Shown here piece after piece: positions 26,512 through 27,213 of a DNA stretch of 35,391 nucleotides. The stretch lies in IMG/VR virus record IMGVR_UViG_2778261298_000003. One strand, written 5' to 3'. Source of the DNA: a virus (Duplodnaviria; Heunggongvirae; Uroviricota; Caudoviricetes). Position numbers and translations under genes: made by a program. The notes beneath the pieces were generated by a model. The model did no database searches and was not told where the DNA came from. It saw only the letters and a program-made list of their open reading frames with translations. Numbering within the stretch: the first letter of the stretch is position 1; every line of letters begins with the position of its first letter.

Positions 26512-26745
26512 ATGTCAACGAAGAACAGAACCCGCAGAACAACAACCCGCAACATCCGCTTTCCTAACCAAATGATTGAACAAATTAACATCGCTCTTGA
26601 GCAAAAAGGGTCCGGGAATTTCTCAGCCTGGGTCATTGAAGCCTGCCGCCGGAGACTGTGCTCAGAAAAAAGAGTTTCTTCTGAAGCAAACAAAGAAAAG
26701 AGTGACATTACTGAATTGCTCAGAAAACAGGTCAGACCAGATTGA
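26512..26745 (+). CDS. Small putative ribbon-helix-helix DNA-binding protein (YlcI-like; family assignment from memory)
   Basis: 77 aa starting at ATG; basic N-terminus (RTRRTTTRNIRF) followed by predicted helices; opposite strand to the late operon. Confidence 0.6.
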   Translation: MSTKNRTRRTTTRNIRFPNQMIEQINIALEQKGSGNFSAWVIEACRRRLCSEKRVSSEANKEKSDITELLRKQVRPD

Positions 26746-26802
26746 AGCAATTTAGATAATCGTGCAGACTACGCCCCCTCATATCACATGGAAGGTTTAT
26801 CT

Positions 26803-27213
26803 ATGGATCAGGTAGTCATTTTTAAACAAATATTTGATAAAGTTCGAAACGATTTAAACTATCAATGGTTTTATTCTGAGCTAAAACGTCACAATGTCTC
26901 ACATTACATTTACTATTTAGCCACAGAGAATGTTCATATTGTATTAAAAAATGATAATACAGTGTTATTAAAGGGCCTAAAAAACATTGTGTCTGTCAAA
27001 TTTTCAAAGGATAGGCATCTTATAGAAACGACCTCTAATAAGCTGAAATCCAGAGAGATCACATTTCAGGAATACAGAAGAAACCTTGCTAAAGCAGGAG
27101 TTTTTCGGTGGGTTACAAATATCCACGAACAAAAAAGATATTACTATACCTTTGATAATTCATTACTATTTACTGAAAGCATCCAGAAAACTACACAGAT
27201 CTTACCACGCTAA
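26803..27213 (+). CDS. ydfO: Uncharacterised prophage protein, YdfO/YbcV-like (DUF1398; family assignment from memory)
   Basis: ORF-track frame from 26788; start re-set to the ATG at 26803 ([28 protein letters not shown]...), which has a GGAAGG SD 7 nt upstream; 136 aa. Confidence 0.7.

Follow-up and report, generated by a model that had tools for sequence, protein, structure and literature searches.

What are the two small open reading frames (ORFs) beside cos in this phage DNA, and do they work together? In the window (the whole 35,391-nucleotide stretch analysed here), two real plus-strand ORFs, antisense to the late operon, have cos on one side and the AT-rich accessory block on the other. 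A sequence-only reading had taken them for a small ribbon-helix-helix (RHH)-like protein followed by a DUF1398-like protein, a layout that it called common in autoregulated modules such as those of the toxin–antitoxin (TA) or exclusion type. Judged by sequence, the gene pair is already known: it is the annotated ynfO–ydfO pair of the K-12 prophage Qin, and it is found in lambda too in a slightly different arrangement. The earlier assignment of family and position stood, but it had missed that both genes were already named and widely annotated. With some reserve, we favour the explanation that these are separate, non-essential ‘moron’ genes of Qin-type lambdoid prophages, YnfO being an RHH regulator and YdfO being made from a host-controlled promoter. 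Identity, distribution, context and mosaic origin, the observed parts of this explanation, are taken first.

Identity and setting of the two genes

The first gene, ynfO (26512–26745, plus strand), encodes a 77-amino-acid protein of the DUF3950/YlcI–YnfO family, a predicted RHH DNA binder. Its profile HMM scores exceeded the curated cut-offs of both Pfam DUF3950 (E = 2.7e-21, 75.6 bits; cut-off 25) and NCBIfam YlcI_YnfO_N (NF041551; 36.6 bits; cut-off 30). It also matched phrog_949 (6e-34), retained the family core K-x-IRFP...NFSAWV.EAC and was 100% identical to K-12 YnfO (b4533).

The second gene, ydfO (26803–27213, plus strand), encodes a 136-amino-acid member of the DUF1398 (YdfO/YbcV/YcgX) family, with a Pfam match covering the full-length domain (profile positions 1–119 of 119; E = 1.7e-46, 157.5 bits; cut-off 22), and the DUF1398 assignment made from the sequence was correct. 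The protein matched phrog_413 (1e-85), was 100% identical to K-12 YdfO (b1549) and shared 140 of 141 residues with PDB entry 2HH8 (‘ydfO’), a structure that gives its fold. An alternative start at 26788 would give 141 residues, but 26803 is most likely the true start because a Shine–Dalgarno sequence, GGAAGG (26790–26795), lies 7 nt upstream of it and none precedes 26788; RefSeq also uses 26803. The AlphaFold model of YdfO was poor (pLDDT 54.5), and the sole Foldseek match below E = 0.4 was 2HH8 itself (E = 8.6e-15), so that fold relatives can be neither claimed nor excluded from this model.

The ORF map bore out the cos-adjacent position and the orientation against the late operon. On the minus strand, terL (23678–25603) and Nu1/nohA (25578–26123) lie to the left of the pair, and gnsB, cspI and Rz to the right. 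The cohesive-end 12-mer of cosN, AGGTCGCCGCCC, was read directly at 26301–26312; we take it to be the 12-mer of the lambda left end in reverse complement. Here the virion left end, at lower coordinates, borders on the right end, at higher ones. The gene pair sits at the virion right end, between cos and the lysis cassette, and AGGACCC at 26336–26342 is presumably cosQ-like. No alternative ORF on either strand of the interval matched a family, and no known RNA family was found in it. As expected for morons, the pair lies between functional modules and is variably present among related phages, and its base composition (GC 31–32% for ydfO and ~43% for ynfO) differs from that of the flanking packaging genes (53–56% for nu1/terL).

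The DNA from nohA to gnsB was identical to that of K-12 at 1406 of 1418 positions (99.2%). A 1.2-kb query matched 4839 of the 5426 complete E. coli genomes, 2631 of these covering at least 80% of the query, and was 100% identical in the 20 best-matching chromosomes listed. In one chromosome identical across the query, genes for portal, protease and decoration proteins follow the large terminase. Together with the full-length large terminase of the window, which K-12 Qin does not have, this marks the window as the more complete relative of Qin.

A mosaic junction beside cos

Window positions 26313–26674 aligned by blastn with lambda 48502–48141 at 95.0% identity over 362 nt. This conserved plus-strand ‘right-end block’ comprises ~200 bp of non-coding DNA and 163 nt from the start of ynfO. 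The lambda right-end match given earlier for 26313–26510 was correct, and it reaches further, to 26674. Beyond it lies a plus-strand junction segment of 54 bp (26675–26728), bounded by the blastn breakpoints against lambda, which stands in for 613 bp of lambda (48140–47528; the 3′ end of ylcI plus lambdap79/ybcW). No p79 homologue was found by blastn anywhere in the window. YnfO is the same as YlcI over residues 1–49 and diverges from residue 50, after ...RRRL, most of its specific C-terminal tail being encoded by the junction. With the 613 bp replaced by 54 bp, p79 is lost, YnfO acquires another C-terminal tail and ynfO comes to stand 57 nt upstream of ydfO. Identity to lambda was 95% in the ynfO part versus 84% in the ydfO part, a sign of differing mosaic histories.

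The ylcI-like ORF of lambda (48303–48109, 64 amino acids, 200 bp from the right end) is missing from the RefSeq record NC_001416, an omission that deserves correction. Mutations listed for ylcI in two evolution studies are single table entries that carry no functional information.

YnfO as a predicted ribbon-helix-helix protein

The AlphaFold monomer of YnfO (mean pLDDT 73; 79–85 over residues 21–50) has an extended segment at residues 13–18, the putative beta-strand, followed by helix 1 (19–32), a turn (33–36) and helix 2 from residue 37. This is the RHH layout of an N-terminal strand and then two helices joined by a tight turn; that the strand went unscored in the monomer is expected if it pairs across a dimer. 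Most of the top 50 Foldseek neighbours of the model were RHH proteins, among them ParD, NikR, Arc, MazE, VapB, HicB, CopA, CdbA and KacA (best E-value 1.8). Comparison by hhalign placed TRNIRFPNQMIEQINIALEQKG on QFNLRWPREVLDLVRKVAEENG of Arc over 22 in-register columns (P = 0.021), and gave P = 0.33 for CopG. Among PHROGs there were weak HicB-like (E = 0.01) and Arc-like (E = 0.32) matches, and the family profile found no match among PDB sequences. The ‘RHH-like’ label given earlier is therefore upheld qualitatively, by sequence pattern, model, Foldseek list and Arc alignment, but none of the RHH matches from Foldseek, hhalign or the PDB profile search was statistically significant. We infer that YnfO is an Arc/CopG-type RHH protein, which would probably dimerise, bind DNA repeats and act as a transcriptional regulator.

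Candidate regulatory elements and expression

The mechanism that we propose is the inferred part of the favoured explanation and concerns the regulatory role of YnfO, the promoter of ydfO and the nature of YdfO. YnfO would most likely act by autoregulation, through the conserved 200-bp stretch between cos and its own start codon. A repeat search located two overlapping inverted repeats here, ATCAATTATGACG/CGTATTAATTGAT and TGACGCAGAT/ATCTGCATCA (26410–26450), which lie 60–100 bp upstream of ynfO, are invariant save for two variable positions among six aligned sequences and form a candidate operator for the RHH protein. Across lambda, DLP12, 2H10, E. albertii and Escherichia sp. MOD1, the whole stretch from cos to ynfO hardly varies, even when the cosB/Nu1 flank is unrelated; such constancy might come from selection for cos function, or from recent spread, instead of an operator. 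A plus-strand scan upstream of ynfO revealed no sigma-70 consensus promoter, which leaves the transcription start and autoregulation of ynfO unproven.

Upstream of ydfO, a PdhR-box-like palindrome, AACAGGTCAGACCAGAT (26726–26742), overlaps the last ynfO codons, 61–77 bp before the ydfO start, and is followed by a −10-like hexamer, GATAAT (26755–26760), a putative ydfO promoter. Homology upstream of lambda p78 resumes at 26729, exactly at the PdhR-type box (blastn). The same 17-mer is the PdhR gSELEX site reported at ynfO>ydfO, with a related site at ybcV<>ybcW, and ybcV mRNA was 10-fold lower in a pdhR mutant (PMC7660256). We propose that ydfO is driven by its own host-controlled promoter, a PdhR-type box and then GATAAT, as before ybcV and lambdap78. 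It may also receive read-through from ynfO in the window arrangement; if YnfO were to bind at the GGTCAGACC box, it would be linked to ydfO. Directly 3′ of the ydfO stop codon, a plus-strand hairpin, GUCCGGCU...AGCCGGAC (27222–27250), folded at −21.9 kcal/mol (z = −4.25; none of 200 shuffles as stable). An equivalent sequence lies 3′ of lambdap78, and the hairpin is a probable transcription-unit end, though its U-run is not canonical.

Published data agree with expression outside the late programme. Qin of K-12 is a defective prophage, yet ydfO is expressed from it: it rose 12.5-fold by microarray and 117-fold by qPCR with the ionic liquid [C2mim]Cl (PMC4077768) and was among four Qin genes that changed on DicC induction (PMC11430063). 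The suggestion that the genes are expressed independently of the late operon is thus plausible, given these two responses and the PdhR-type box. YdfO itself would be a small soluble protein, with no solved relative detected, that the lysogen makes under particular stresses; it would not be toxic, nor would it form part of the virion. Its overexpression is said to raise oxidative-stress resistance (PMC4077768), a statement untraceable in the main text of the paper cited there. By CRISPRi lambdap78 was non-essential, the ylcI-like ORF not being among the annotated targets (PMC10695390), and a Qin-deletion mutant of BW25113 is in use (PMC11430063); the insertion-poor score of ydfO in K-12 TraDIS (PMC5821084) speaks against dispensability.

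DUF3950 in satellites and the packaging question

Most mapped DUF3950 loci outside Escherichia have the layout of integrase/primase satellites, with DUF3950 as the lone opposite-strand gene, a position that fits a regulator role. The order is int–AlpA (twice)–Rha, DUF3950 pointing rightwards, and then leftward genes for proteins of 62 and 179 amino acids and a primase-helicase; it was Pfam-confirmed in one locus (L088), and most other loci were alike by ORF maps. Operator-like repeats precede DUF3950 in 29 satellite-layout loci. They differ between elements while the DUF3950 beta-strand barely varies, so DUF3950 may not be the reader of those repeats. A further upstream motif, ACGTCAA, is shared by many satellites (position −66) and the window (position −112), and is too weak to build on. 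Satellites also encode a conserved fusion of DUF3950 to a TerS N-terminal DNA-binding domain (5 clusters, 44–100% identity), and in one such fusion (L170) the C-terminal half resembles the TerS of the neighbouring prophage. Viral contigs scanned with a fusion protein (P0208) yielded no confirmed locus, and those scanned with the YnfO family alignment yielded only near-identical E. coli loci.

These loci raise the slim possibility that YnfO/YlcI-family RHH proteins are a regulator class common to lambdoid phages and their satellites, and that YnfO is not a passive moron regulator. The reading is based on two placements: in satellites the gene occupies the regulatory hub, with some copies joined to a duplicate of the TerS DNA-binding domain of the helper, and in phages it is fixed at the right end next to cos, under two unrelated packaging systems. 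If true, YnfO could take part in phage–satellite cross-talk, for instance by silencing satellites, sensing them or binding close to the packaging site, or could be a first-entering early gene. The link to satellite regulatory regions provides a concrete hypothesis for YnfO; the discovery value itself is small.

YnfO might instead act at cos, binding near the packaging site and modulating terminase or packaging specificity, and not as a transcription factor for accessory genes. The gene does adjoin the packaging module in both the lambda-type Nu1/A and the Stx-type HNH–TerS–TerL systems, the cos-proximal 200 bp and the 5′ part of ynfO form one nearly invariant block, and the TerS fusions of satellites point the same way. 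We nevertheless consider this unlikely. In most non-Escherichia loci the ORF map places DUF3950 between integrase-side genes and a large primase-sized ORF, far from packaging genes (Pfam-confirmed in L088), and morons in general tend to collect between the lysis and packaging genes, which makes position beside packaging genes weak evidence. As far as is known, cosQ/cosN/cosB, terminase and IHF suffice to explain how lambda cos works and how packaging proceeds in vitro.

Entry order at the right end

Position could also matter at infection, if ynfO/ylcI and then ydfO/p78 were the first genes available and served host take-over or anti-defence. In the window ynfO lies closest to the right end and points inward, as its counterparts do in lambda, DLP12 and 2H10; the copy in the Stx-type phage YYZ-2008 sits with HNH at the equivalent end. 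In the classical last-in-first-out view, the lambda right end is packaged last and enters the cell first. A 2023 study challenges this view, reporting that either end of lambda DNA is ejected first with ~50% probability in vitro (PMC10287942). The neighbouring lambdap79 is reportedly discussed in a preprint of 2026 that deals with an NADase defence domain. Neither protein has homology to known anti-defence proteins, however, no promoter was recognised before ynfO, and defective prophages, which never inject, keep the genes and express them; we regard an early-entry role as improbable.

Two genes that behave independently

In the TA or abortive-infection/exclusion proposal, YnfO would serve as an RHH antitoxin that also represses its own gene, and YdfO would be the toxin or exclusion effector freed when YnfO is degraded. 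The arrangement in the window invites it: an RHH-type gene stands 57 nt upstream of a second small same-strand ORF with no predicted terminator between them, the structural neighbours of YnfO include many RHH antitoxins (ParD, MazE, VapB, HicB and KacA), it has the HicB-like PHROG match at E = 0.01, and ydfO is insertion-poor in K-12 TraDIS, where it was classed as ‘essential only by TraDIS’ (PMC5821084). The two genes are not kept together as a pair, however. Relatives of YnfO occur in 155 phage records and those of YdfO in 43, ydfO being absent from most YnfO-bearing phages; none of the 42 non-Escherichia DUF3950 loci had DUF1398 within 3.5 kb; and YYZ-2008 carries DUF3950 alone, between Rz and HNH–terS–terL. 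Conversely, the DUF1398 gene ycgX lacks a DUF3950 partner and lies outside the annotated prophage. In lambda and DLP12 the genes are parted by ~600 bp and an opposite-strand gene, and the adjacency seen in the window stems from the 613-to-54-bp replacement that also made the YnfO tail. A conserved, adjacent and co-oriented pair, as expected of a type II TA system, was thus not found.

The proteins themselves give no more encouragement. Among Pfam, NCBIfam and PADLOC models the second protein matched DUF1398 only and no toxin, and neither protein matched any of the PADLOC-DB v2 families at E ≤ 1. YdfO was also produced for the NMR structure 2HH8, and high-level expression was presumably tolerated. 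These co-occurrence data and the absence of toxin or defence models lead us to reject the TA or exclusion module, which we hold to be very improbable, and the TA-like reading can go; nor is an autoregulated two-gene module supported, with ycgX partnerless. The two behave as independent accessory genes, in line with their different mosaic histories and GC contents.

A 233-residue protein (P0235; 761 member sequences) was considered as a natural RHH–DUF1398 ‘Rosetta stone’ fusion and was rejected: the underlying contigs carry a TGA stop, which gene calling had turned into Trp, and the protein is thus an artefact. The ynfO gene and the 26788 start of ydfO lie in one frame, parted by one TGA and 14 sense codons, an arrangement that by our estimate arises by chance about 1 time in 6.

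That YdfO is a structural protein, as implied by the ‘head protein’ label of phrog_413 and of lambdap78 in RefSeq and by ‘putative envelope protein’ in older GenBank records of lambdap78, is scarcely credible, since ydfO is AT-rich, antisense to the late operon and missing from most YnfO-bearing lambdoid phages, lambdap78 is non-essential, the chromosomal paralogue ycgX lies outside the annotated prophage and, to our knowledge, p78 is not part of the well-established lambda virion; the labels look like propagated automatic annotation and appear unfounded for this DUF1398 gene.

Comparison with known systems

Returning to ynfO and ydfO as separate moron genes, YnfO resembles the Arc, Mnt, CopG and MetJ repressors in its small size and basic N-terminal arm. 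It aligns in register with Arc, through N-x-R-aromatic-P and then helix A, and has the G-x-x-x-S turn of RHH proteins ahead of helix 2. Unlike the RHH antitoxins (ParD, the HicB C-terminal domain, VapB and MazE-RHH), it has no conserved cognate toxin partner.

The P4/PICI-like and capsid-forming-PICI-like satellites of Enterobacterales carry members of the same Pfam family, with an IRFP...NFSAWV.(D/E)AC core and ~30–50% identity to YnfO. In both settings a short DUF3950 gene runs opposite in strand to the surrounding operon, but in the satellites its place is after int/alpA/Rha and before the primase operon, preceded by operator-like repeats that differ from element to element, and some copies are TerS-fused.

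Lambda and DLP12 carry both genes in the order ylcI–ybcW/p79–ybcV/p78, in the same cos-adjacent place and orientation as in the window and with the GGTCAGACCAGATTGAA element upstream of the DUF1398 gene common to all three. They differ in the 613 bp with the opposite-strand gene p79/ybcW that lies between the two genes where the window has its 54-bp junction, and in YlcI, which has 64 residues and a tail unlike that of YnfO; lambdap78 and YbcV each share 79% identity with YdfO. In K-12 Qin the neighbours are those of the window (nohA, cos, ynfO ydfO, gnsB ynfN ynfR ynfQ cspI rzpQ), but Qin is truncated just past nohA and continues with stfQ/tfaQ, whereas the window keeps its large terminase at full length.

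Two Qin prophage genes beside cos

Two open reading frames on the plus strand beside cos, at 26512–26745 (77 aa) and 26788/26803–27213 (141 or 136 aa, depending on the start), are real genes. In profile searches, the 77-aa protein matched Pfam DUF3950 (E 2.7e-21), NCBIfam YlcI_YnfO_N and phrog_949. The second matched Pfam DUF1398 (E 1.7e-46), phrog_413 and PDB 2HH8 ‘ydfO’ (140 of 141 residues identical), while alternative reading frames on both strands of the interval gave no family match. The 136-aa form is favoured because a Shine–Dalgarno sequence, GGAAGG, lies 7 nt ahead of the ATG at 26803 with none ahead of 26788, and because RefSeq annotates this form. 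The cryptic prophage Qin of Escherichia coli K-12 MG1655 encodes these same two proteins, at 100% identity, as YnfO (b4533) and YdfO (b1549); from the nohA start to gnsB, 1406 of 1418 nt agree with Qin, in the same gene order.

The flanking genes, nu1/nohA and the large terminase gene to the left and gnsB, cspI and lysis genes to the right, are all on the minus strand, so ynfO and ydfO are antisense to the late operon and divergent from nu1 across cos. The cohesive-end 12-mer occupies 26301–26312; lambda 48502–48141 aligns to 26313–26674 at 95.0% identity. The sequence-only reading, which had matched this segment to the lambda right end and placed two plus-strand genes, one DUF1398-like, against the late operon, was correct on each of these points and described two genes already named.

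The sequence is widespread in E. coli. The best 20 E. coli chromosomes among the matches listed carry the 1.2-kb segment at 100% identity, and 4839 of 5426 complete genomes have a match, with at least 80% covered in 2631 of these. The first 169 nt of ynfO (26512–26680) occur at 9861 places in 4184 genomes (at most 12 per genome), and ydfO-type sequences at 8903 places in 5376 genomes, a count that takes in partial matches to the paralogue ycgX.

Elsewhere in the window, Rfam searches at gathering level placed a cspA thermoregulator 5′ UTR element ahead of cspI and a second csp gene (28185–28570 and 31081–31473, both minus) and an IS009 RNA family match at 3342–3540 (minus). The gnsB gene (27365–27541, minus), convergent with ydfO, bears the RefSeq name ‘GnsA/GnsB family addiction module toxin’; gnsB, not ydfO, would be the candidate for any toxin–antitoxin-type test in the accessory block.

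ynfO and ydfO are not a two-gene module

The suggestion that the pair forms a toxin–antitoxin-like or exclusion module did not survive comparison. By tblastn against 50,697 phage records, YnfO relatives were found in 155 and YdfO relatives in 43; YnfO occurs without YdfO in Stx-converting phages, 434 and many others. A divergent family alignment, used to scan a genome collection, found 113 loci. Many lambda spike-in contaminants in unrelated assemblies were set aside, and 45 loci were examined. A DUF1398 gene lay within 3.5 kb of DUF3950 at only three of these, all Escherichia, and at none of the 42 non-Escherichia loci. Conversely, the DUF1398 gene ycgX has no DUF3950 gene beside it, and neither protein matched a PADLOC model or toxin family.

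An apparent natural fusion, the 233-aa database cluster P0235 (761 sequences), was rejected. The upstream ydfO ATG (26788) is in frame with ynfO, parted from it only by a TGA stop and 14 sense codons (26743–26802), and the cluster reads this TGA as Trp; the TGA is present in the contigs' DNA, so P0235 arose when genes on short metagenomic contigs were called with the wrong genetic code.

In many assemblies of unrelated organisms (L121–L145, L148, L151–L152, L157 and other loci), including Streptomyces, Cohnella, Pedobacter, Enterococcus and an Arcanobacterium ‘plasmid’, the lambda right end with its ylcI reading frame was also seen, either on short contigs, commonly of some 3.5 kb, or on contigs of about 48.5 kb. 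Contamination with lambda control DNA is the most likely source, and it also explains many of the 3.5-kb ENA contigs among the protein search matches.

We consider it most likely that ynfO and ydfO are moron genes that sit independently of each other at the right end of virion DNA, YnfO being a putative RHH regulator that would probably control its own expression and YdfO a small protein that is probably under host control.

YnfO as a predicted RHH protein

The YnfO family shares the core K-x-IRFP(H/N)-x-(L/M)IE-x-I ... NFSAWV-x-(E/D)AC. An AlphaFold model built on a 19-sequence alignment (mean pLDDT 73) has an extended stretch at 13–18, a helix at 19–32, a turn of four residues and a helix from 37, a predicted fold that resembles an RHH protomer outside its dimer. 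Foldseek gave no significant match for the model in the PDB (best E 1.8), and a PDB sequence search with the family profile found nothing; RHH proteins nevertheless make up most of the Foldseek list (ParD, NikR, Arc, RHH-type MazE, KacA, VapB, MatP, HicB, CopA(SO), NikA and CdbA). YnfO 12–33 (TRNIRFPNQMIEQINIALEQKG) aligned on Arc 9–30 (QFNLRWPREVLDLVRKVAEENG; hhalign, P 0.021) with the DNA-reading strand and helix A in register, and weak PHROGs matches were HicB-like (E 0.01) and Arc-like (E 0.32). From the core pattern, model, Foldseek list, Arc alignment and PHROGs matches, a predicted ‘RHH-like DNA binder’ is the best reading; the original RHH-like label stands as a reasonable prediction.

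DUF3950 genes in phages and satellites

The family is small, with 120 representatives at E ≤ 1e-3 among 1.84 billion, and non-contaminant loci in the genome scan were mainly in Enterobacterales. In ORF maps, most non-Escherichia loci examined have DUF3950 as a lone opposite-strand gene with an integrase-sized reading frame on one side and a primase-sized one on the other. At L088, the sole non-Escherichia locus with gene order checked by Pfam, int, two AlpA genes and Rha precede the DUF3950 gene, which faces a 62-aa gene, a 179-aa gene and a primase/helicase gene, beside tRNA genes.

The 160 bp upstream of the DUF3950 start have a common architecture at 29 Enterobacterales loci (L087–L118): a GC-rich hairpin with a T-run between roughly −160 and −120, a pair of element-specific repeats (such as GGTGCACAAACACC or TGTGCGCACA) flanking a conserved ACACGTCAA, which lies at −66 in many of them, and a third repeat over a TATAGT box. 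This looks like a divergent promoter–operator region, where a regulator would be expected; given that the boxes vary and the putative DNA-reading strand is almost constant, they may be read by a protein other than DUF3950.

Packaging offers another possible role. In the Stx-type phage YYZ-2008 a DUF3950 gene lies alone and antisense between Rz and the HNH–TerS–TerL packaging module, and five clusters (44–100% identical) fuse DUF3950 to a small-terminase N-terminal DNA-binding domain. One such fusion is carried by a satellite resembling capsid-forming PICIs, at about 90–8050 of L170 (E. coli CP027459.1 3713563–3725925), with int, two plus-strand DUF3950 genes (one the fusion), a D5-type primase, its own TerS and a capsid gene. 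It adjoins a Stx-phage-like late region (8047–12363) and, because homology to YYZ-2008 stops about 274 nt inside terL, apparently interrupts terL of a Stx-type prophage; the junction recurs in three other assemblies. We regard action of YnfO at the packaging site, or in phage–satellite cross-talk, as less likely than the moron reading; an early ‘first-in’ role after DNA entry is also less likely, its last-in-first-out premise having itself been challenged (PMC10287942).

In two satellite-like ‘phage’ records, vB_KppS-Ant (3501–3674, E 8e-8) and Pasteurella phage Pmp7 (3501–3659, E 4e-5), tblastn matches to YnfO are antisense to longer annotated CDSs, one a ‘transcriptional repressor’. Either the records miss a small DUF3950 gene or their CDS call is in error.

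Regulation and phenotype of ydfO

When K-12 was exposed to [C2mim]Cl, ydfO showed the strongest induction of the genes followed up, 12.5-fold by array and 117-fold by qPCR, in a growth-phase-dependent manner (PMC4077768). It is also among four Qin genes altered by DicC induction (PMC11430063). PdhR genomic SELEX identified a 17-mer, AAcaGGTcagACCAgaT, at ynfO>ydfO, with a related box in the ybcV–ybcW interval; in a pdhR mutant the mRNAs of ybcV and ybcW drop roughly 10-fold (PMC7660256). In the window AAcaGGTcagACCAgaT is at 26726–26742, exactly where homology upstream of lambdap78, the lambda DUF1398 gene, restarts, with a GATAAT hexamer downstream (26755–26760); we infer that ydfO has its own promoter at this point. 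The promoter scan found no consensus site for ynfO. A stable hairpin (z −4.25) lies 3′ of ydfO. The YdfO model was poor, and Foldseek returned 2HH8 itself as the only significant structural neighbour.

lambdap78 is non-essential by CRISPRi (PMC10695390). A K-12 study lists ydfO as ‘essential only by TraDIS’, that is, insertion-poor (PMC5821084), although a Qin-deletion strain is in use (PMC11430063); silencing of AT-rich DNA or multi-mapping to paralogues is a possible trivial cause.

Comparison with lambda and DLP12

Lambda has both genes: a 64-aa YlcI-like reading frame (complement, 48303–48109), 200 bp from the right end, and lambdap78. The former lacks annotation in RefSeq lambda (NC_001416), while other records call it ‘YlcI/YnfO family’. 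The latter is a ‘head protein’ in NC_001416, where a GeneMark start makes it 177 aa long; from the conserved start (47452) it is 136 aa, and its ‘head’ and ‘envelope’ labels seem to have spread by automatic annotation.

The ybcW-like lambdap79 (47738–47944) is ‘essential’ in a dCas12a CRISPRi screen and listed as non-essential in the literature. It lies on the opposite strand between the YlcI-like frame and lambdap78, and DLP12 of K-12 has the lambda-like order ylcI–ybcW–ybcV. A 2026 preprint on an NADase defence domain reportedly names lambdap79 six times.

In the window, which holds no lambdap79 homologue, homology to lambda ends at 26674 and restarts at 26729, a 54-bp segment standing in for 613 bp of lambda. 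Because of this replacement the prophage lacks lambdap79, the YnfO C-terminal tail differs from residue 50 on and ynfO lies 57 nt upstream of ydfO. The two halves differ in history and composition: identity to lambda is 95% in the ynfO half and 84% in the ydfO half, and GC is about 43% in ynfO, 31–32% in ydfO and 53–56% in the packaging genes.
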